A stretch of 64,000 nt of DNA from the IMG/VR virus record IMGVR_UViG_3300040786_000066; one strand, given 5' to 3'. The DNA is from a virus. The notes under the pieces are model-generated. The model was not told the DNA's origin. It did no database searches and saw only the letters and a list, made by a program, of their open reading frames with translations. Of this stretch, positions 4,391-43,771 are shown piece by piece. Each line of letters starts with the position of its first letter. Positions within the stretch are counted from its first letter, which is position 1. Both the position numbers and the translations under genes were made by a program.

Positions 4391-4628
4391 ACGTCTATGT
4401 ATTGCAATAACTAACCGACTGTACTCTGCAATAGCTGACCTGACCGCAATGGCTACGGACAATATTGAGACTCTACTACCCCAAGGGCAGCTTCGTCCTG
4501 ACAAAGAAAAGGGCAGCTTCGTCTTGTCCAAATATTTCTTTGTCGCTCCCGCGTGTGGGATTGATACAACGGCTTCCCTGAGGATGTTTGTTGTCACTTA
4601 TAACACGAAATATAAAACCTATATTACA

Positions 4629-5230
4629 ATGTCAAAATCAAGCACGATTAGTTTAGATGTATTAAATGCATTAAGCCCACAAAAGGAATGTTGAACGCTT
4701 CAGTTAAGGAGCTAGAGAACCAAGTATTCACTTTTCATTCTATAGTTGCACCTGCTGAGAAACTGCGGATCTTACTGCTGTCAGCGATGACAACTCGTAT
4801 GTGAAAGCTCGTTATATCAATTCAAAAACAAAGAAGAGTTTCTTGATCCCAATCAGAGGATTATTGAATCTTGGAATTGTTCAGATGGGTACAACTAAAG
4901 TGAAAGCATTAGACCCTAAAGCAGAAGTTGCAAAGTGAATGATTATTTACTTGAGAAATCAACTGATGGTAAGGAGTGAGTCTTCCAATGTCTTTCTATG
5001 TAGTTTCTGTCAAAGATAGAATCCAAGAAAGCACTGGGAACATTATGTACCCTCCGTACTGCTACCAAGCGTTCTCTGATGAGATTGAGACGCTTAGAGC
5101 GACAGATCCTAAAGCGGATTTGGGTCCTATCTACCAAAATTATGACTTTATGCAGTCATTATATGCTGGAGAAAGATCTGCTCGCTACGCCACTGCGGAA
5201 GCAACTAAAGACATAGTTATCTCAGTTTAA
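4629..5230 (+). CDS. hypothetical protein (indel-split), paralog of 3721-4265
   Basis: MSKSSTISLDVLN... through YPPYCY to the stop at 5230; followed by a terminator at 5260-5300. Confidence 0.55.
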
Positions 5231-5708
5231 TCCCAAAGGATTTAATAATGATACTATTTACTCTCATACCAGACCATGTGTCCGGTGTGGGAGTTCTTTT
5301 GTCCTTTTCAACAATACACCACTAAAAGCACCTGACATTGCACCATTCATCCATAGGTTTATATAACATTACCGTCTTTTCAACAACAAACTACCCATTT
5401 CCTCTTAACAAACTGGATTTATACTCGATATCGAGTGTATTTATCTCCGATTTGTAATAAATAACAGGAAATAAGTGTATTTTGGTTCGTTGATAACAGG
5501 CAAAAGCGATGAGTACAAAAAATTGAATAATAACGTTAAGTATAAAAGGAGATCCTCGATTACTGAAGAAAGTAAGTAAGTCGAATGGGTTAACCCGAGT
5601 AAGAACACAACGATAAAAATATAGTTAATCAGTCCACAGCCTTCCAGGAACAAACACACTTGTTTTCCATAATTATAAGAGTCATTAATCACGTCAGACA
5701 AGACCGCG

Positions 5709-6093
5709 AAGCTTGTTTGACTGGGTTAGTTACTAAAGTACCAATCCCTGGTCGGCGAAGGGAACTGAGGTTAGAAAAACTGCGAAGCAGCAGGCTGAAT
5801 GCAATGTGATGAAGTACAGTAATCATGTTAGTAAGTCTCTCCCGAGTAGATTGAGTATAACGATTTACAATATTAGCCCCGGATATAGGTTGATTACCTT
5901 ACCCTGTATCAGATAGACACGTTTCATCGTCGGGCAATAACAAAAGTCCAGAGTGCACATAGGTATATGAAAATTAAGAACCTACCTGCATTAGATTTAT
6001 TAGAGAATCGTCTGGCAACAATAAGTCCTGAGTGGATTGCATGATACGTCATACAACCTCGAGCTCTTCATAAGTGGAGAGCTTTACAGGCTT
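5709..6093 (+). ncRNA. candidate large (~385 nt) structured RNA, unassigned
   Basis: No credible ORF. Closing helix AAGCTTGT(5709-16)/ACAGGCTT(6086-93). Internal stems GATATAGG/CCTGTATC, AGCTCTTCA/TGGAGAGCT and CTGC-GAA-GCAG. Confidence 0.5.
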
Positions 6094-6104: not shown

Positions 6105-6226
6105 CGGAATTAATCTTGACGCTGATAGTATGTGCACATATAATTTCAGTTGAGGTACGAGAGATAATCATAAATTAAGTTGTACAGCTTGATTCAATGA
6201 AAGGGTTCGATTCCCGAATTTCCGCA
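6105..6226 (+). ncRNA. tRNA-like RNA (acceptor plus T-loop, non-canonical core)
   Basis: CGGAATT pairs with AATTTCCG (one bulge); GGG-TTCGATT-CCC T-arm; no canonical anticodon arm. Confidence 0.4.
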
Positions 6227-6792: not shown

Positions 6793-7062
6793 AAGATTGT
6801 TCATTGACGTATTATGAGTTTTGCAAGACGGGAGTTCGACTCTCCCAACTCCACAAATCGAAGACCGTGTATGTTGTCGATGGTGTAGCTAGCCGATATA
6901 CAAATAGCCGAACTTATGGGGTTGCCTGGTTTTGATTGCAATACACAAGTTTTACTGAGAATAGTCCCAACTATAACTCCAAAAGTTATACAACTTTTAG
7001 TGCAGCTGATTTAGAATTAGCAGCCTAGACGAAACTTGGGGAGCGTCAATCCCCTTATTTTT
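6793..7062 (+). ncRNA. ssrA: circularly permuted (two-piece) tmRNA
   Basis: Acceptor piece first (GACGGGAG-TTCGACT-CTCCC-AACTCC-A, 6827-6853), then a spacer, then the 5' piece GGGGTTGCCTGGTTTTGA at 6918 (G3:U70). P2 TTGCAA/TTGCAA. Tag frame ends ...FSAADLELAA-TAG (7028). Inter-piece pairing TTGACG(6804-09)/CGTCAA(7044-49). Confidence 0.88.
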
Positions 7063-7083: not shown

Positions 7084-7425
7084 ATGAAAAACGAAACTCT
7101 AATTAATCCCAAGATTACGAGGACTCGTAATTCTGTGAACGTAAATTGGTTCTCTGTATGTAAAAGTAGCGTTGATAACGTTATTCAAATTACATCAAAA
7201 TCCGAGTTCTTTAACACTCCTCTTGTTTATAAAGTAACAGAGGATTTAATTATACTTAGAAAAGTCACTATACGAGATAACAAAAGAATAGTAGTACCTA
7301 AAAAAGGCCGCGATTCTGAGTTTTATCGCATGAGCATCATAACTAAATTTGAAATCGAAAACAACAGATACGATTTTGAATTTGATGAAGATGATGAGGA
7401 TGTAGTATCTGCTTATTATAAGTAG
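7084..7425 (+). CDS. hypothetical protein
   Basis: Intact 113-aa ORF with an acidic C-terminus inside the ncRNA island. Confidence 0.6.
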   Translation: MKNETLINPKITRTRNSVNVNWFSVCKSSVDNVIQITSKSEFFNTPLVYKVTEDLIILRKVTIRDNKRIVVPKKGRDSEFYRMSIITKFEIENNRYDFEFDEDDEDVVSAYYK

Positions 7426-7459
7426 CATATTTGTAAATTAATTGAGATCTTTGAATTGA

Positions 7460-8770
7460 AATAACGGCTTGAGCGAAACGTGGGCCGTGGTTCAAAGAAT
7501 ATACAACACTAGTCCTGGAATTCCTGGCAAGCCTATGAAGATAGGAACTTGGTAGAGGATAGAGGCACGTAATCCTTCATATTGCATCGGTACAAATAAA
7601 CAAAACCGAGCCGCACAACACCGTGATTCTTTTAGATAACGGAATATGATTGACTACAACCGGAGCACGGATTCAAACTAACTGTACTGTGTCGAACAGG
7701 ATGAAATCGATTGATGCTAGCCGTAAGGCAACTAACATCTTGTTGCATTTAAAAGGGACAAGAAATGATAGGGATTCTGCAGGATCCAGCTATTGAATAA
7801 GGGTAAGAATAATATCCCCTTAGAACCTCGCTGACACCAGCCAAGTCAGGAGAACAAATCGGGTGGCATCCCTCTAAGCATAAGGAGAACAACAATGCGC
7901 ATTAGCATAAGGTGTACAACAATGCAAGTACTGTCGGCCAGCCATGTCAGCTTGGACCCAAAGTTGGAGTTGATAACTTTGCCGGCAAGTACTTTAACCA
8001 TGCTGAAAAGCAATTGCAAGGAGACTATTAGGTACGTCTTCCCAGAGTAACGTGTGCCAACACCCTGGGTATCTTAGGTCAAGGATGCAATACTTTTCAT
8101 AAAGTCTATAATCTGCGATAACAGAATGAATACATCAACCGCGCAACAAGGCGAGTTTAGTTTTTAGTATGTGAGCGGTAGACACAACTACACACAACAA
8201 ACAAAGATTGCTACTTAAGCTAGTTTATGAACAGCGACTCTGACTCGGGCATCTAATGTACCGGCTAACCTTACAGAGAAAAGGTGTAATCCCTTGCCAG
8301 TATGATTTTAGGCAAATGCAAACTTCGTCAATGTTCCTTAGCGTTCGGGTATTAAGTATAAGATAGCATAAGCCTAAAAGTTGTTGGCATTAGGGCATCA
8401 AGGGATTGATGTGATGAGCTGTAACGGAACTCAGCAGGCAGGTTCGATTCCTGTTAGCCTCACTATTTTAACAACATCCAACGCTCAAAGGAATTAAGAG
8501 GGCAGGCGTTATAGTGACCCGCCGAGAATGAATGGTCACTGAATTTCTAAGTAGTAATGGTCATCTTAAGATACCTGAGTAGAGTGAGTAGTAAGAGTGG
8601 TGCCTATATGGTATTTCTGAAATGAACGTAGTAGCTCAAAAGGCAGATGGACTCAATAGAGAAGATTATTATTGAATTTGCGTGTTCGTTCAGTCCAGTT
8701 TGCATAGCAGGATCGCGCACGTTAAAACTAAGGTAGGAGCAGTCATCAAGTATGGTGATTGTCTCCCTTT
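7460..8770 (+). ncRNA. giant structured RNA, GOLLD-like, with an embedded tRNA-like element (~8393-8462)
   Basis: About 1.3 kb with no ORF of 60 aa or more on either strand. Many helices, e.g. AAGTACTGTCGGC/GCCGGCAAGTACTT, AAAGTT/AACTTT, CCCAG/CTGGG, AGTGACC/GGTCACT, TGGACT/AGTCCA. Ends in a terminator-like hairpin. The class assignment is from recall only. Confidence 0.55.
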
Positions 8771-8798
8771 TGTATACTAAGAACTAACAACAACTAAC

Positions 8799-9161
8799 AT
8801 GGAAGAGTATGTAGATTACCTGAAAGGGAAAATTCAAGAATGCGAGCTGGAAGATATGCACGTATCTGTGTCTGTTTACAAAGAAGTACTAAATACTTAT
8901 TTAAGTTTCCTTGATGCCGCCAAGCTGAAAGCATCGTTACATAATAAAGTAGGCATAGTTACAGCAGGCTCAAGACAATTTGGTAAAGCTGCCAGATTTG
9001 CAGAGCTCTATGGTATGATGAAACCTGCAGTTCACATCATGGTGGGCAGCAAAGAGATGCATGACAATATGGAAAAAGCACTTATTGATGCTGTAGAGCA
9101 TGTAAAGAATGCACCTATTCAAGGAAGATTTACAGACGCTTTTGAAAAGAACGCGGTATGA
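8799..9161 (+). CDS. hypothetical protein
   Basis: Intact 120-aa ORF preceded by a CAACAACTAAC leader. Confidence 0.65.
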   Translation: MEEYVDYLKGKIQECELEDMHVSVSVYKEVLNTYLSFLDAAKLKASLHNKVGIVTAGSRQFGKAARFAELYGMMKPAVHIMVGSKEMHDNMEKALIDAVEHVKNAPIQGRFTDAFEKNAV

Positions 9162-9533
9162 GCATAAACGAGTCCATGGCAAAAGACAACAGTATAATGA
9201 TTACTGCTCTTCCAAAGATGACAAAGCCTCTACTCCCGTTGGATAAATATGGCCAACCGCTTGAATTACCTAAATCCAAATACCACAAATAATCATGAAC
9301 AGCAAATTTATAGGTTACGTAGCAGGGTTGTTGGTAATAGACAGGCAAATGAAAAAATGCTTGGCTGTTGTAAGAACAGCTGGCCACCAGAAAAGAACAT
9401 CAAGCAAGTCTAAGCTGAAGCAGAGTAAGCCGGCGACTAATGCAAATTACAAGAGCACTAAACCGATGAAATCTAAGTCGACCTCGCAATTTCGAAACAA
9501 GTCAAATATCTAACAACAACTAAACTAAGAAAA

Positions 9534-9883: not shown

Positions 9884-10300
9884 ATGAAAGAAATAAATAA
9901 AGACATTGTAAAAGAAACATCAAATAGGCTGTTGGGATTATGTGAAAACAATCCGGCAGCCTATAAATGTATGATAGAGCTGCTGTCTTCTAATAGACGT
10001 ATCGATCCCAGTAACGGTTTTGGACCGTTAGGGGCTGTAGTAACATTACACTCCTCAGGCATAAAAGGCAACAAAATAAATCTGTTGTTCAACTCAATAT
10101 GTCAAGGCAACATTGCCAGACTAATAGCCATTTTAAGAGCTGTACAGTTGGGGTTGATCTGTAAAACAGAGGTTCACCAAGCAATGTCTATATGTGAAAA
10201 CTCCAAGGAAGAAGCTCTTGACGTAAGAAACATTTATCATAAAGTCAAAAAATACTTGGCACTCAACTTTGACATAAAGAACGAGGCCAGGTTCACCTAA
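9884..10300 (+). CDS. hypothetical protein (tandem paralog 1)
   Basis: Shares the ID-P...G..G..I..LF..IC..N.AR..A.LRA.QLG pattern with the next gene. Confidence 0.7.
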   Translation: MKEINKDIVKETSNRLLGLCENNPAAYKCMIELLSSNRRIDPSNGFGPLGAVVTLHSSGIKGNKINLLFNSICQGNIARLIAILRAVQLGLICKTEVHQAMSICENSKEEALDVRNIYHKVKKYLALNFDIKNEARFT

Positions 10301-10310
10301 AACCAAACAA

Positions 10311-10694
10311 ATGGCACACATAGAAAGAATAAACTGGACAGACAGCGTGCCCGATGCGGTAGCTAAAATAGCGGAAGGGAACATCGGGGCGGCAGTATGC
10401 ATTATGGACCTGATGAAACACTCAGAAGAAATAGACCCTTTGAGTTACCTAAAAGTAATAGGACCCGTTATGCTGTTAGACAGCCTTGGGATATATGGAC
10501 CAAACGTATGGGTAATATTCAAAGACGTCTGCGAACAGAACCATGCAAGAATGCTCGCAGTGCTGCGTGCCACACAGTTGGGCATGCTTTCAAGCGAAGC
10601 ATTGTTGGAGGTTTCAAACAGGCAGTACAGAAATGAAGGAAAAGTAAAAAATAGACGTTGCCGAATTATATTTCAAGGTGAAAGACTTTCTTGA
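10311..10694 (+). CDS. hypothetical protein (tandem paralog 2)
   Basis: Paralog of 9884-10300; the 3' end is probably shifted by an indel. Confidence 0.7.
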   Translation: MAHIERINWTDSVPDAVAKIAEGNIGAAVCIMDLMKHSEEIDPLSYLKVIGPVMLLDSLGIYGPNVWVIFKDVCEQNHARMLAVLRATQLGMLSSEALLEVSNRQYRNEGKVKNRRCRIIFQGERLS

Positions 10695-14448: not shown

Positions 14449-17349
14449 TAAAATAAAACCTCGAGAACCTAGCCTCAAATTTTTTCTGGAAGAAGATGGG
14501 AAAATAGAAATAGTTCCTCAAGATATTAATGGTATACATAGACTAGCTCAATTTTTGCTAAACAGATTTGTAAAAGCGTTCTTTTGAATCCACTCTAAAG
14601 GAAAATTTGAATTCATCAATGAAATTCTTCAAGACGATCTCAATAAAAATATGGACATAGAAGACTCAATACCGGCGCTCGCCAGTGCAATTATCAGTGT
14701 CTATGATATACGTAAAAATATTGTCAACAACGAGCTCAAAGGAAGAGACCTGAAACACGTAGAATATGGTATAATGAAGGAGCTAGAAAACGTTTGGAAT
14801 ATGTACAGCAAAAGATTGTTTCAGCTTAATAATCGAACTCAAAAGCGGTATAAGCAAATAAAACCCATATATTTGCAAAAACATATAGAAGGGTATACTT
14901 ACAAGATACTTTTCTAACTCAAGCTTAACCATTAATCTAAATAAATAAATCATGCAATTAAACCAAGAAGTTATCGTAGTTTTATCATAGCAGTATCGCT
15001 AGCAATGGCCGGAATATTTATTTTGTCTATGTATTTTCAAGCATTCATGAAAAACAAAAAAAAGAATTTAAAATAAAAGTTGTTTTAAATCCTAAACCGC
15101 TTGTAGTAGAAAATGGTATACAAAGACCACCGATTGTAGCAATAACGCCAAGCGGTGAGCCCATGGATCCATTTACTGAGCAAGCACAGTCAGACAACTA
15201 CAACAATTCTCCTGCAATAGATATGACCAGAGGAGGTGTATTTGAAAATGGACAAGAAGGAATCATAGCTATAGATATTCAAGATGGATACGACAAGTTT
15301 AACGATAACGTAAAAAATACTTTCGACAGCTCTCAAGACCTAAACATTACTATAAACGAAGATGTCTTTACTTCTAATAATGAAAGTCAAGCGCAAGCTG
15401 AGGGTAATGGACTGTTTGAAAAGATTTTGTAGCTCAACCAGACCTTACAGAAATAGGCAAAACTGGGAACAGTTTGATGTTATAGATCGTCTAGGTGCTT
15501 TCGAGATGTATTCTCCAACAGCTGACATATTCAAATGGAGGCTTGATGAAAAAAGCGGTTTAATACTTAAAAGCAATGCTAATTACCTTTCAGAACTGAC
15601 ATGTAGAAACGGCATATTATCTGCTTTGAGTAGACTAAGCAATAAAAGTCTAAAACGATCCTTTAGTTATATCCTTCACACAAGATTTCGGGTACAGAAT
15701 GCTGCTCAAAGCAGTAAATGGAAAACACCTGGCTTATGGAGAATACTTTGACAACGAGGAATCAGTGAAAGAAGCAATAGTTAAAGCTGTAATCATATTA
15801 AAAGACAACCAGTTGTTACTGAAAAATAAACTAAAGCAGCTTTAATCAGGCTGCTTTCTTATTAACTAACTTTTCCACACCTACATGGAACCATTCAAAC
15901 CACGAACTAAGATACTTCTAATAGTTGGAGCATCTAAGATCACATTCTCTGGAAACAAAGAGATGCTCAAATAGCCACACTAGCCAATGGCGCAGAGGTG
16001 AGAGCAAATAAGCTATCAACAGCATTCCGATTCAAAGCCGAAGGATACAGACCTATCGAAATAAGTTTCGACGATATCAGAGCACAAAACTTCAAATTAA
16101 CACTTCAATCTAAGTAATATGAGCCATATGATAGAAGGAATACAAGTCACAGAAGATCACATAGGGGATCCGGTAACTTACATACCAAACCATGCAAAAG
16201 GTGACGTTAATCATTCAGACGTAGAACATGGAACGATATCATCGTTCAATGAAAGCTGCCTGTTTGTGAGATACAGATCAGCATGCGGGAGAGCACTCCG
16301 ACGAACCTATTAGTATGGGGATAATACCAGCTCAAAAATAAAATACAACCTACATCAAATGAACAAAGAAATTATACATCAAGCGGCACAAGCTCACGCA
16401 GAAAAATCTTTTATACAACCATTGAACGCTCAAGGAGAAGTAATGTCTATACCTACTGGGCATACTGTTCCGTACGGCTACAGAAAGCATTGCAAATTGG
16501 CTGAAAACATTTTAAAGCCGGAGTACTTTGGTATCAAGAACAACAGCTTAAACCAGCTGCAAAGCCTTTGATTAAAAAAGAATCTAAGACGTGGTTCAGT
16601 GTAAACTGCTGGCCTCTAAAAAGAAAATAATTTATGAAATTATACGAAACAGAAAGTCTATCAGAAAAACAAAGAGACAAATTAACCAGCTATTTTAAAC
16701 TCGCAAAAAAATTAAAAGAATTTCAAAATGGTTGCACTCCTCTTGTTATGATAGCCCTATTCGGAGAAAAGAAGGAGACAGATTATGGGTATCTTTGCAG
16801 GCAAATGTGATAGAAACGCTGATATGTGGCTTACTTACTTGTGCTCAGAACAAAAGATATATTCTGGGTACAAATAGTGAAATACGAAAATCTTTGCAAA
16901 GGGATAAAAGAATATGGAGAAATATAAACAGACAACACTATGTATAATATATCAGCAAGAAGAGCAACTGAGTCAGATTATGGCTTAATCACAAAAGACA
17001 ACAAACCTTTAGAGTTTGAAACAGAGCAAGGAGCTAGAAAATGGGCATCGGCTAACATAGAAGCTAAGAAAAGTATGATTGTAAGCTGGTCTATAATAAG
17101 AGCAGAAGTAACTAACGCTGACAAGTAAAGTTATGGAGTACTGTGGGACAATAAGAATATCAAACCCTAAAACGCTGCAAAGCTGGATAGATAGGGGCTG
17201 GTATCAAAAAGTCTATCTGAAGGCTACATATTTAACGTAGGTTGCGGAAGATTCAAAACAGAGAAGTGTACCTGCTCAGCTTGTAGAACTAGAAAAGACC
17301 GGAGCTATCTAAAATAGTAAATAAATTTAATAATTTAAATATCAATAAT

Positions 17350-22428: not shown

Positions 22429-23936
22429 AATAATTATGGAAGTAAAGCTAATTAAAGTAGAAGGCTGTGTAGTCGGCTGGTCTATGGAAGGAGAAAACCT
22501 TGAAGAAATGAAAAACTAGGGGCTATCAGAGACATCCAATTCTTTGGTTTTGAAGATACAGAAATAGTGTACGCAGGTAGAAAAGGCGGTGACTATGTAA
22601 CAGATCCTGGAGTGTTGTCTTGGAAACAAAAAAAGCACGACACTAGCTCCCCAAAAAAATAATGAAAAGCTAGAAGCTACAATAACAGTAGATAACTTAG
22701 TGTCGACCATGAAAACATCAATGCCATCAGAGAAGATCCTAAGAGAACGAATGAAATATTTCGTGCTGCAGGATTTTAGAGGGTATATTGTATACTAGGG
22801 AGGCTAGTACCAGGCAAACAACTTGTCTTTAAAAATATCACTTATGTGGAGATTGGATGGATAGGCCAGAAAAGAATAAAGACCAGAGAACAAACCTACA
22901 TGGAGCTGATGGTAGAAATGATGGAAGAATTCATCAAAGAACTCACTTAATAAATTGACTTATGGAAAAAGAAGTAAATGTTAGAACATACACATACGCT
23001 CAACTAGACTGTAAATATGATGCACTATGTTTAAAAGATAAAAATACAGTGCTTAGAGGAGCTTTAGAATACATGCAGCAGTACAACGGTAGGACTATAA
23101 AACATGCATTTTCATGGCTATGGGCTATGAGGATTGCGTAGGGAAGGAGAATACATAAAAGTAATAGACCATGGGTAACATACAAGAACTGGAAAACAGC
23201 TGGCTGAGGCAAAAGCTGAAGAAAAGAGAAAAGAGCTTCAAACCTTGACAGAAAACCTCATCTCTAAATACCAAGGAAAGCTTACGGGAGTCACAGTTTC
23301 GAAAGAAAAACAGATCAGCGTACGCTTCAGCTGTGTTTTATGAAAAGTTCTGGGTTACAGGCAATACGATAACAGTATTGAAATGGAACATATCCTTTTG
23401 CAGAGCAGGAAGAAATTACAAATTCTCAAGTGATAAGCTGTCTTTGACAGAAACAAAACTGAGGTATCCTCACAGGAGAACGGCTATAGTTTTGAGCACA
23501 ATTTAATAAGTTCAGGCGCCTATGGTAGGGACAAAGAAATGTCCGTAAACAAATTCATGCAACTTTGGGAGTACGGATATTTTGTGGTACAAGAACTAGA
23601 CAACGTATACACAAAACTGTGGGACAGCCGTGGGACTTGACTAGAATGGGCACAGCAACCGATGAACTAAAGTTAGATATAGCTATAAAAGCCACTGGTA
23701 TTGATGTTATAGATATAACAGAAGACTACAAGGTATTCAACGTACTCAAGTATTGTCAGTTACCGTTCTTTCAAGAACAGAAGTATCTGCCTAGAATATT
23801 CGCAGTAAAAATACTCGAATATCAGATATCCAAAATGAAGGAGGATATGGCACATCCATTCTCTACACGCACAGAACACACACGTGGAGAAATTAAAATT
23901 CTAGAAGATTTTATAAAACAATTTAACTCTTACATC

Positions 23937-24842
23937 ATGCAAGTAAAAACGATAAAGAAAATAATCAGTAAAAAAATGATCGACTGGTTAGAAACTATTC
24001 CCAACGAAAAGTTGAGATCTGACGTCAAGAAAAATATCCTCGTATCAGGAGGTTGTATCACATCATTGTTTCAAGGATTACCAGTTAACGACTACGACGT
24101 ATACATTCAGGACATGGATGTTCTGATCAGACTGGCTCAGCATTATTACCCAGGAACAACTACCACAGGTGTTGATAAAGTGCTTGACGGAAGAAAACGT
24201 GAGGACTATCTTAACAATATACAGAGCTCTTTTGAAATTGACGATAACGAATCTGAAGAAGCAGTTCGCTACAAAACACTTAAACTAGATCAAGTCAAAT
24301 TGAACATAAGTTCGATAGGAATGAAAAAAGAGCTGATTGAAGGTAAAAAATACCAGGTTGCTTTCTTTTCCCAAAATGCTATCTCCCTTACAGAAGATTT
24401 GCAGATTGTATTAAGATTCAGTGGTAACGTTACTCAAATTCACAAAACTTTCGATTTCGTGCATGCCACTAACTATTTCACCTTTGAGGAAGGATTAGTT
24501 ACAAACGTAGCAGCACTAGAAAGCATATTGACAAAGTCTTTGAGATACCAGGGATCCTTATATCCTCTTACCTCTGTAATACGTATGAAGAAATTCATAC
24601 AACGTGGTTGGACCGTAAACGCGGGAGAAATCCTTAAGATGTTGTTCCAAGTGTCTGAGTTAGACCTAAAAAACATAGAGGTGCTAGAAGAGCAGCTTAT
24701 AGGAGTTGACGTAGCTTATTTTTCGCTACTGATAACAGTGCTAAGAGATACTGAAGGAAAGCTTACCGCTCATCATTTATCTGAATTGATAGACAAGGTA
24801 TTCAATGAATACGAAGAGCCGGTTGACGAAGAAGTTAAATAA
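23937..24842 (+). CDS. phage nucleotidyltransferase (Pol-beta superfamily, poly(A) polymerase/CCA-enzyme-like head)
   Basis: ILVSGGCITSL...NDYDVY and FDFVHATNYF...R..KF..RGW motifs. The ORF track starts at 23565; the likely start is MQVKT. Confidence 0.75.
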   Translation: MQVKTIKKIISKKMIDWLETIPNEKLRSDVKKNILVSGGCITSLFQGLPVNDYDVYIQDMDVLIRLAQHYYPGTTTTGVDKVLDGRKREDYLNNIQSSFEIDDNESEEAVRYKTLKLDQVKLNISSIGMKKELIEGKKYQVAFFSQNAISLTEDLQIVLRFSGNVTQIHKTFDFVHATNYFTFEEGLVTNVAALESILTKSLRYQGSLYPLTSVIRMKKFIQRGWTVNAGEILKMLFQVSELDLKNIEVLEEQLIGVDVAYFSLLITVLRDTEGKLTAHHLSELIDKVFNEYEEPVDEEVK

Positions 24843-40833: not shown

Positions 40834-41124
40834 ATGATAAAACATAATATAGAAGAAGAGGCAAAGCTTATGGCTTTACCTGAAGGAACCTCGGTTACAG
40901 TAGAAGGAATTACAGGCAAACTTACTATTAAACCTTATCCTGCCGGCTATGAAAATACTATAAAAGTAGTTCTTGAGTACATGGGAGAAATGGATGAAGA
41001 TCTCTTTGATGATTTTGATGAAGCAGTTGGAAATACATTTGATGAACTCATTGAATTTTACAGAAAGCACGGTGGAGGATTTGTTGAAGATAAAAGTCTG
41101 TTGCATTCAGAAAGCCTACGTTAA
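40834..41124 (+). CDS. hypothetical acidic protein
   Basis: Intact 96-aa ORF after a terminator. Confidence 0.6.
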   Translation: MIKHNIEEEAKLMALPEGTSVTVEGITGKLTIKPYPAGYENTIKVVLEYMGEMDEDLFDDFDEAVGNTFDELIEFYRKHGGGFVEDKSLLHSESLR

Positions 41125-41556
41125 TAGAGATTTACGAATTTAACGCTTTTACGAATCTTATGAGTTTGGTATTGAATACGAACAAGAAGAAGACTTTAAT
41201 GTCAATCCAAGAGACATAAGTAAAGGCCTTATTAAAAGGACAGTCTGTAGTATGCTACGAGTACCCTGCATCAGCTTATCAAATAAACGTAAAAAAATAA
41301 CTGTCATGATACTAAAAAAGGAAAATTCACTGTTGACAGACAAAAGCTCGTAATTTATTCAACAGATGTAATTACAACTTTAATTGCCTGTAATGCAATA
41401 AAAGACATAGTCTTAGGAGGAGAATTCATAATTACCGCTGAAGATATTTTAGAAAAAGAAAGCACATTCCCGCATCTCTTTTAAACGAAGAGTTGCCTGA
41501 AGGCTATACCAGCGCGCATCACTCTATTATTAACATAGTTTATAAACCAAACTAAC

Positions 41557-42650
41557 ATGAAATTTTCACCTCAACTATTACCAAATAACCCTGCAGGAAT
41601 AACACCTGATTGGGAAGCATTATTAACTCAATTTCTGACTACATGGCCTCTGATAAGGCTGATGGAGGTCGTGTAGAATGCGGAGAAGACGGATCAGCAT
41701 TAGGAAGAAGCTTAAAACCTATTCCAAGTGAGCATATTAAAGCAATGACAAAAGACCTTTCGCTGTTATTACAACACGAAGGATACGTTGAAGCTGAATT
41801 GTACAGCCCCAACATGAACTTTGCTGAGATCATGCATTTCTTTCGATCGGAAGACGTTACTTCATTAAAATCTCGTAAAAAACATGAGGCAGAATGGAAA
41901 AAACAGTCGGTGGAACTATCTCCTACACTAAAAAAGTAGGTAATGTAAATGTAGATCAGCACTGGGAATATCCGGGAAGAGATGTCGACTGGTTATGTAC
42001 TTGGCAACCTTGCCTAAAGCTGTACGTTTTGACCATATTAAAGGAATTGATGACAGCCGCACCAAAGAACAGCGCTATGAATCCCTTCAAGCTATATGGG
42101 ACAACAGCAGAATAATCGATGATTTAAATGACATAGCAGTCTTAGTTAAGCAAACTCAATATACAAGTATTGACGAAGTTTTCCAAGCTTATGATCAAGC
42201 TATCATCAGTGGATACGAAGGCCTTGTAATGATGCATAAAAACTCTTCTTATAAAATGGGAAGACATAGCCTAAATTCAGGTATGGCATACAAAATCAAA
42301 GAAGACAACCTTCAATTTGATGGTGTGATTCTGTCGCTAGAAGAGGGTACAGAAGTCATAGAAGGAGTAGATAAGAAAATCAACGAGTTAGGCAGAAGTG
42401 TAACTTCAAAATTAAAAGAACACCGTACTCCAAGTGGATTATGCAAAGGCTTCAAAGTTCTTATGGACGATGGTAACGAACTTACCGTTTCTTTAAAGGA
42501 TTACCCTCACCCAGAGCGTAGGGCTATGCTTTTAGACCCTTCTCCTTATATTGGACAGACAATACGTTTCACCGGAATGGGTGCCGTAAAAGAAGGCGGA
42601 TGTCCTCGTCATGCCCATTACACAAAGGGAATATCAGGGATGAAAAGTAG
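41557..42650 (+). CDS. lig: ATP-dependent DNA ligase (indel-split)
   Basis: KADGGR (motif I), EAELY, YEGLVM (motif IV), YKIK (motif V) and OB-fold IRFTGM...PRHA. Confidence 0.88.
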
Positions 42651-43771
42651 CACTTTACAATTACTTGAAAAACTAAAATACGACGTGCTTGACATTCATT
42701 ATATCTACAGCTTTTTTTCAATAAAATGATCATAGGAGGAGTAGAAACAACATCAATGAACTCTCCTAACGGATATTGCAAACTAACTAAACTAGCTGTA
42801 GGTGGAGACAAATTCTATATAAACCAAGCTATAGAGTTTGAAGAGCAGGACTAGAATTCACTGATGTGCAATTCAGATCAAAATAATTAAACTTTAATAA
42901 CAATTAAATGAAAAATACATTACAAACCGTACTAACTATATCAAACACAGACATAGTGACAATGCTTGTAGTAAAGCAAAAGAAGAGTTAATCTTAAAAG
43001 TTCCAATTCTAAGACAACAAAAAATAGATTTATTATCAAAATACGTAGCTATTTTAGAAGCAAATTTGCAAAAAAGATGGGATGAAAATAATTCAAAAGA
43101 TGCAATACTAAGCGCTGCAAAAACAGTTGTTTCTCTTTATAACCCAGGTATAGAGTTTACTATACTTGCAGATAACACTATGCTTGAAGCTGCAACAAGA
43201 AGAGTACATAACACTTTCGGTAATAGATTAAATTATTCTGGTAATAACCTGCCTTCATATAAAACTCGTTTTCGGTAGGACCTCTTCCAATGTTATCAAC
43301 AGAGTGGGTACACGAAAAGACGAAAGATCGTTTAATGCGTTTATGTTTGCAAGTTTTTCACTTGTAGAAAAAATAAAGAGTCTGAAAAGCTTATTTCTCT
43401 AGAAAAGAAGATAACATTAAACTTGTAGAAATTGACGTAGAAATAACTAAAATCGATAGCTTTCTAAAGACGATAAGAAATTACACGACCATATCGTTGC
43501 CCAAATGACTGAAAGAGCTATTGAAAACAATCAAGAAATGAAAGTACTGCTTTCTGGAATCAAACTACTTTCTTAAATGAGCTTCGACGAGATAGAAACA
43601 ATAGTTATATTAGTACAACTTAAAATGGTTCTGCCCATCAAGTACTTACATCTAAAGAAAACAAAGAAGTAGCTTTAAGAATGATAGCTATTCAAGATGA
43701 GTCGTTGAAACTGGACAAAGAAATAATGCCAGTAGTATTCACCATTAAAAGTAACCAATAAATACGTTAAT

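Follow-up and report, generated by a model that had tools for sequence, protein, structure and literature searches.

Among the closest described systems are two large phage RNAs. GOLLD has a 3' region that is conserved and a 5' region that is less so, sometimes carries tRNAs in its linker, and is borne by phages near tRNA islands (10.1101/2024.12.08.627333). Its 5' and 3' regions form separate 3D domains, and ROOL, the second system, is an ornate RNA of large size that is encoded close to tRNA islands in phages and prophages and whose function is not known (10.1101/2024.12.08.627333). Large phage RNAs of this type are among the least understood RNA classes, and just a handful of families is known. 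Here we describe a locus in the IMG/VR virus record IMGVR_UViG_3300040786_000066, a contig of 64,000 nucleotides (nt) from a cold-water phage, called the window hereafter. From the letters of the window, the original prediction had read positions 7460-8770 as one giant GOLLD-like RNA with a degenerate tRNA-Tyr-like element inside. The region that we studied, 7426-8798, is non-coding and is built of conserved, covarying modules, which are arranged differently from lineage to lineage. We consider it probable that it is one transcription unit, encoding several new RNAs that fold and are inherited independently, with a tRNA-like element as processing handle.

The window is a long-read contig with insertion and deletion (indel) errors. 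It comes from an ice metagenome, as do the runs X1, X2 and X3 used for comparison. Short-read contigs of run X1 add GGC after position 7470, AGC after 7663, GG after 8385 and CTT after 8767, together with several homopolymer bases. The long open reading frames (ORFs) of the window are all on the plus strand, and many recognisable genes are in fragments, including those for an ATP-dependent ligase, a DNA polymerase exonuclease domain, a RecT-like and a DnaB-like protein. Stop-codon reassignment was rejected as the cause of the short ORFs, because no reassignment opened the frames cleanly; the fragmentation results from indel errors. The ATP-dependent DNA ligase gene (41100-42729), with its KxDG motif region in one frame and its C-terminal part in another, is an example of such contig errors rather than of biology.

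Relatives were collected in two steps. The protein downstream of the region, used as query, retrieved numerous noisy reads that stem from the phage itself, L003, L004 and L009 among them, as well as a truly diverged relative, L001/L002, with 59% protein identity. A 201-amino-acid (aa) anchor gene upstream of the region in L001 then gave more distant phages, namely L013/L014 (a 163-kb contig), L015, L016, L017, L018 and L019. The read L010, 88% identical, was too noisy to be counted as a lineage. Tenacibaculum phage Larrie was the closest isolate, with 51% identity in one protein of the tRNA nucleotidyltransferase type. The host is probably of the Flavobacteriia type. The family members come from a few JGI, ENA and Logan metagenome assemblies, and the family would seem to be either rare or restricted to habitats with little sampling.

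Region 7426-8798, flanked by ORFs of 113 aa and 120 aa, is non-coding in every lineage examined. Its longest stop-free run was 75 aa, compared with 90 ± 18 in shuffled sequences, and no ORF above chance was found in the region in the window, L001 or L013. Relatives assembled cleanly from short reads were also free of ORFs there. Substitutions between the window and L001 showed no 3-base periodicity, and only 6 of the 27 indels were multiples of three. L001 has 3.8 kb without called genes, the last 1.86 kb of which is homologous to the window region. Identity to L001 was 79-92% in the RNA blocks, compared with 73% in the adjoining coding sequence. The region is under strong selection for RNA structure, as the covariation of its modules shows.

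The 3' domain is a structured RNA of ~230 nt at 8472-8698 (plus strand, like all modules below), for which the covariance model R1 covers seven lineages. A long closing helix (~8553-8566 with 8659-8672) encloses a multi-helix core, and the motifs UCUUAAGAUACC and GGCAGAUGGACUCAAUA are invariant. A pseudoknot between GGACU (8648-8652) and AGUCC (8691-8695) is suspected. R1 scored 196-247 bits in the window, L001, L013, L015 and L018, 50 bits in L016 and 68 bits in L019, whose contig ends within the domain. In the covariation alignment, which also includes four weak sub-threshold matches, 91% of cells were paired, compared with 29-51% when the pairing partners were slid. Compensatory pairs numbered 21, compared with 2-5 in the slid controls, and none of 500 shuffles reached the observed values.

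Module A, a structured RNA of ~390 nt at 7440-7825, was found in four lineages (window, L001, L013 and L019). It comprises a 5' hairpin (7448-7455/7491-7498), two core helices (7568-7581/7645-7658 and 7506-7514/7709-7717) and two 3' hairpins (7767-7794 and 7798-7822). Across the four lineages, 95.9% of the cells of its 49 consensus pairs were paired, compared with 34-46% for slid partners, and 18 pairs had compensatory changes (0-2 in the slid controls). The helix 7568-7581/7645-7658 is almost wholly rewritten in L013 and L019, with pairing kept. The covariance model of module A, R2, scored 289-306 bits in all four lineages.

Three further modules lie between module A and the tRNA-like element. 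For these, mostly comparable only between the window and L001, the compensatory counts are the meaningful measure, because two-sequence alifold forbids broken pairs by construction. Module B (7826-8090) is conserved in L001 and found at a different locus in L013 (15317-15439, E 5e-10). It consists of a hairpin (7829-7852), tandem hairpins of the form GCAU-13 nt-AUGC (7878-7898 and 7905-7925) and a variable long arm. Six of its pairs are compensatory between the window and L001, with exchanges such as G-C to A-U and UGAC/GUCA to CGAC/GUCG. Module E (8092-8203) ends in a CA-rich unpaired linker and is 92% identical to L001; its 10 substitutions relative to L001 include no compensatory one, leaving no covariation available. 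Just upstream of it, L001 has an insert of 123 nt in the MAFFT pair alignment, or ~143 nt by BLAST block boundaries. Module C-D (8204-8383) has two parts, a 35-nt element that is conserved (8204-8238) and a hairpin domain whose closing stem is an 8-bp helix, TTTTAGGC (8306-8313) with GCCTAAAA (8372-8379). In L001 the helix reads CACTAAAC with GTTTAGTG; five of the eight pairs are changed on both sides and still pair. A third lineage (run X3), read from its listed differences, has another largely pairing version. Seven pairs of module C-D are compensatory between the window and L001. In L013, C is at 14949-14984 and D at 15598-15667, with B in between; the match for D reaches just E 1.6.

These results bear out several parts of the original prediction, and all the features that it named lie at the positions it gave. 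The locus is a long, conserved, non-coding and covarying phage RNA locus that adjoins tRNA-like and transfer-messenger RNA (tmRNA) genes. The two helix-dense domains that had been proposed have covariation well above the slid-partner controls, and the proposed 8-bp helix is the closing helix of module C-D. Single-sequence minimum free energy (MFE) folds of the whole 1.35 kb were uninformative: when the MFE pairs of the window were mapped onto L001, 57 were kept and 95 broken on the plus strand, and 63 were kept and 105 broken on the minus strand.

The tRNA-like element (8386-8462) is conserved in L001 and L013 (11889-11983 in the latter) and reduced to acceptor and T-arm in L019. The window lacks two G after 8385, as confirmed by the short-read contigs of run X1. 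The corrected acceptor stem has 4-5 bp, GGGG(C)/(G)CCUC, beside a conserved A.A/U.U internal loop. It is followed by U8-A9 and a 7-bp D-like hairpin with a GGGA loop, which grows to 11 bp in L001 by matched insertions on both strands. The "anticodon" arm is weak, and its loop is GTAACGG in the window compared with ATAGA in L001. The T-arm, GCAGG-TTCGATT-CCTGT at 8436-8454, is canonical, with GGTTCGATTCC at 8441-8451; it does not vary in L001 and is also conserved in L013 and L019. Three pairs of the element are compensatory between the window and L001. The discriminator is A, and no CCA is encoded, the next letters being CTA or CAC.

The CTGTAAC loop and the T-arm are thus present where they had been predicted, and the tRNA-Tyr identity drawn from them does not hold. 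The GTA-containing loop is not conserved, and ARAGORN found no tRNA in the window, L001 or L013 region; with relaxed settings it gave inconsistent answers, with a different "identity" for each lineage. The best match among tRNA-clan models, at 8386-8459, was tRNA-Sec with 19.9 bits, compared with a threshold of 47. The acceptor stem of 4-5 pairs likewise departs from the tRNA cloverleaf, which has 7 bp there, a D-arm and a 7-nt loop with a conserved anticodon. The element is tRNA-shaped at its acceptor/T-arm/elbow end, and it is neither a decoding tRNA nor a "Tyr" one.

The order and company of the modules change between lineages. L013 has module A, ~150 nt, the tRNA-like element, a 200-nt module X, three ORFs and then the 3' domain; C, a piece resembling the 3' part of A, B and D follow in that order as a separate unit 2-3 kb further on. 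In L019, a gene for a 70-aa membrane protein lies between the tRNA-like element and the 3' domain. Its product is 58% identical to a 64-aa membrane protein at the same place in L013; both genes are real. An 80-aa gene upstream of the 3' domain in L013 has a 68-aa homologue downstream of the 3' domain in L001. L015, L016 and L018 have the 3' domain without module A on the available, partial contigs, two of them with X upstream. In L001, the tRNA-like element and the 3' domain are parted precisely at their junction (8453-8471) by a 263-nt insert, X, which ends in its own terminator-like stem and T-run. At this junction, 475 different letters stand in run X3, and minor contigs of run X1 join the 3' domain to unrelated upstream sequence. 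Two further minor joints of X1 (7927>8114 and 8243>8428), with sides of just 26-33 letters, were left out. Each of the four lineages with module A also has the 3' domain. An acceptor/T-arm element likewise follows the A-containing RNA in four of four, with different sequence in between.

Module X itself, a conserved RNA-like module of ~200-260 nt, occurs in four relatives (L001 9198-9458, L013 11984-12195, L015 ~2800-2890, L018 ~10300-10385) and is absent from the window. It ends in the stem GGCAAAC...GTTTGCC followed by TTTT, and L001 and L013 share 94% identity over its final 80 nt. Upstream of module X, L018 carries ACTAGTCC(C)AGA four times in ~340 nt (9900-10250), with a spacing of ~90-125 nt. 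The repeated motif is the conserved ACUAGUCC of module A; the repeats may belong to another RNA, one that is repetitive and employs this motif too.

Borders of a transcription unit can be proposed on both sides. Upstream, an intrinsic-terminator-like hairpin with T-run (7038-7062, stem 7038-7054, plus strand) ends the preceding two-piece tmRNA unit, and L001 has the same hairpin (7907-7925) directly before the homologous region. TAnnTTTG is the -7 consensus of Bacteroidota promoters. A box resembling it, CATATTTG, at 7426-7433 on the plus strand is the putative promoter of the unit. A TTTG-type box is found after the terminator and before module A also in L001 (TTCTTTTG) and in L013 (TAGTTTTG, a perfect match to TAnnTTTG), so that three of the four lineages with module A have a TAnnTTTG-like box; that of L019 is poor. 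Downstream, an intrinsic terminator hairpin (8739-8762) with T-run, in total 8739-8770 on the plus strand, marks the end of the unit. The hairpin is kept in L001 by compensatory changes (GCAGTCA/TGATTGT to GTGGCCT/AGGCTGC), and L013 has an equivalent hairpin and T-run 3' of its 3' domain. We thus read 7440-8770 as one putative primary transcript, with predicted ends and processing. The transcript is presumed to have plus-strand sense because of how the terminators, the T-arm and the G-U-containing helices are oriented.

Two other features of the phage bear on the tRNA-like element. A gene at 23565-24842 (plus strand) encodes a protein of the tRNA nucleotidyltransferase (CCA-adding)/poly(A) polymerase family (phrog_4400, E 6e-49), and in tblastn it matched annotated tRNA nucleotidyltransferases of several phages. 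The missing encoded CCA of the tRNA-like element would fit a dependence on this CCA-adding-type enzyme. In window elements, and in apparent real tRNA genes of L017 and L019 (these not confirmed with ARAGORN), the acceptor is also followed by N-CAA or N-CTA and not by CCA. Further T-arm/acceptor elements were seen in the window at 6204, 6770, 19786, 31872, 32330 and 36158 and in the 5' parts of L017 and L019. The second feature is the two-piece (permuted) tmRNA that adjoins the region; in L001, 7695-7807 matched RF04321 with 42.8 bits. The element at 8386-8462 reached just 15-20 bits with tmRNA and tRNA-clan models, and no tag-coding or pseudoknot parts were recognisable in it.

Other observations concern the surroundings of the region. 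Pfam and PHROG gave no match for the 113-aa ORF (7084-7425), which separates the tmRNA terminator from module A. Only the window lineage has it; in L001 it is missing, and module A directly adjoins the tmRNA terminator. It has the look of a small gene that was either inserted or lost. The downstream 120-aa ORF (8799-9292) represents the 5' part of a gene of ~165 aa, cut short by a frameshift error, and its full-length homologues (P0002, P0004, P0016 and P0028) have 164-183 aa. Just 3' of the 201-aa anchor gene, ~640 nt are 72-80% conserved across the window (4508-5863), L001 (5983-6627) and L013 (10627-11254). No gene is called there in L001, and the stretch, at the head of the island, may hold a further structured RNA or a gene that was not called.

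Database searches returned no described family. At gathering thresholds, Rfam 15 gave no match to the region in a scan of the whole window. At E<=10, positions 7300-8900 matched just tRNA-Sec (19.9 bits) and a spurious lncRNA; GOLLD (RF01998) and ROOL (RF03087), whose models the original prediction had proposed to run, were both absent. The regions of the relatives, searched against Rfam at E<=1, gave no GOLLD or other family match to the RNA modules. Neither the region nor the tmRNA region had a blastn match among 50,697 phage records. Scans of IMG/VR with the two flanking proteins and two conserved 20-23-mers found nothing, and an 18-mer scan of JGI metagenomes gave four chance matches only. 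No genome contigs were found with the anchor protein. R1 and R2 had no match in Tenacibaculum phage Larrie or in the IMG/VR contig of L017. Two IMG/VR contigs retrieved with the 17-mer GGCAGATGGACTCAATA were not accepted as members, R1 scoring just 10-12 bits on them.

In the reading that we favour, a host-type promoter after the tmRNA terminator would start the unit, and the intrinsic terminator at 8739-8770 would end it. The unit would yield a composite 5' RNA of ~940 nt (modules A, B, E and C-D), the tRNA-like element of ~80 nt and a 3' RNA of ~300 nt. The tRNA-like element would most likely serve as punctuation: cuts at its acceptor/T-arm minihelix would be made by RNase P and by a 3' endonuclease or exonuclease, and the 3' end would be completed by the CCA-adding enzyme that the phage itself encodes. 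Such cutting could release and stabilise the flanking RNAs, by analogy with two other systems. In the tRNA cluster of phage T4, non-tRNA stable RNAs of ~120-140 nt (species 1 and 2) are freed from a common precursor by tRNA-processing enzymes. In eukaryotes, the 3' ends of MALAT1 and MEN-beta form via a tRNA-like element (mascRNA), with RNase P, RNase Z and the CCA-adding enzyme. The mascRNA-type layout, an acceptor/T-arm minihelix without CCA directly 3' of a long non-coding RNA, was found in the window, L001, L013 and L019. By their size, ornate conserved structure, phage origin and tRNA-type neighbours, the modules would belong to the same general class as GOLLD and ROOL. As a guess from this likeness, the mature RNAs might be stable molecules that work in trans as scaffolds or decoys.

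Several points weigh against this reading, and some of them favour the single ~1.3-kb GOLLD-like molecule of the original prediction, whose 5' domain would be variable, whose linker would carry a tRNA and whose 3' domain would be conserved. In the window and in L001, the 1.3 kb run without interruption from the terminator-flanked start to the terminator, and for these two phages it is conceivable that one functional precursor, or one mature RNA, is made. The layout resembles the published description of GOLLD (conserved 3' part, variable 5' part, tRNA-like element between), as an analogy; the covariance models gave no match even at E<=10. Module A could pair with the 3' domain over 7 bp (7819-7825/8545-8551), with two compensatory changes between the window and L001. 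Stems of at least 7 bp with at least two such changes numbered four, compared with 0.6 ± 0.9 by chance, and two of the four are local hairpins. The two long-range ones (7819-7825/8545-8551 and 8406-8413/8718-8725) were not accepted, two being too few against ~0.6 expected, and the pairing of module A with the 3' domain is not kept in L013. The parts are moreover separated by protein genes in L013 and L019 and differ in order in L013; L015, L016 and L018 have a 3' domain but no module A on their partial contigs; and the junction insert of L001 ends in a terminator-like stem and T-run. We therefore regard one giant RNA as unlikely. Somewhat less likely again is an assembly of several parts (A, B/C-D and the 3' domain), fused into a 1.3-kb gene here, split in relatives and joined in trans. 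The constant company of module A and the 3' domain in the four lineages with A, the adjoining two-piece tmRNA and the separate 3D domains formed by the two GOLLD regions (10.1101/2024.12.08.627333) would suit it. Yet no conserved intermolecular pairing was found, the sole candidate being at chance level and absent in L013, and there are lineages, if on partial contigs, in which the 3' domain was seen but module A was not.

Our preferred reading is further challenged by the acceptor stem, whose 4-5 pairs beside a conserved internal loop make an atypical substrate for RNase P and RNase Z. Transcript ends, processing and even the transcribed strand were all deduced from the sequence, and the function of the RNAs is guessed by analogy. 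Two other explanations would dispense with such RNAs in part or altogether. The 3' domain and terminator could be a cis-acting leader of the riboswitch or attenuator type, since a structured element of ~230 nt, a terminator hairpin and a protein gene follow one another in the window, L001 and L013. We think this improbable: the gene downstream varies (165 aa in the window, 68 aa in L001, others in L013, L015 and L018), no alternative anti-terminator pairing was noticed, and Rfam gave no riboswitch or T-box match. Least probable of all is that there is no functional RNA locus, only decayed tRNA or tmRNA genes, spacer DNA or a protein gene hidden by errors. The many indel errors of the window, its visibly frameshifted protein genes and the degenerate tRNA-like element might suggest so, but the clean short-read relatives have no ORF, most indel lengths are not multiples of three, the region is more conserved than the neighbouring genes, and dozens of base pairs have changed in a compensatory manner.

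Compared with the known systems, the modules appear to belong to no described family and, as judged from the model searches, not to be members of GOLLD or ROOL. The locus shares with GOLLD that it is phage-borne, very long, densely structured and located beside tRNA-type genes; the similar layout of conserved 3' part, variable 5' part and tRNA(-like) middle is read as analogy, not homology. It differs from GOLLD in that no model matches, in that its 5' and 3' parts are separate genes in relatives, and in that it occurs in Bacteroidota-type phages from ice and other metagenomes. A homo-oligomeric, RNA-only nanocage is a further mark of GOLLD and ROOL. With ROOL it shares the large ornate phage RNA near tRNA-type genes, but again no model matches, and the conserved motifs and helices are others. 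Like species 1 and 2 of T4, the modules would be non-tRNA RNAs of a phage tRNA region released by processing, as proposed above; the T4 RNAs lie among real tRNAs, whereas here RNAs of 230-940 nt would be punctuated by a non-decoding element. MALAT1/mascRNA offers the same succession of a long non-coding RNA and, directly after it, an acceptor/T-arm tRNA-like element, with cleavage again a proposal for our locus; that system is eukaryotic, and the acceptor stem here has 4-5 bp with a conserved internal loop. The two-piece tmRNA (RF04321) has the same T-arm/acceptor design and the same missing encoded CCA, and differs from the element at 8386-8462, which is without recognisable tag-coding or pseudoknot parts. 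To the few known families of large phage RNAs, the locus adds at least two well-supported new ones, the ~390-nt module A and the ~230-nt 3' domain, as well as a number of smaller modules, in phages from another group of hosts. Families that are fused, split or shuffled amount to a natural "domain shuffling" that shows which parts fold and work alone, which is hard to learn for GOLLD. By analogy with the systems above, the recurring tRNA-like element, the CCA-adding enzyme and the two-piece tmRNA together point to phages that may use host tRNA processing to make stable non-coding RNAs.

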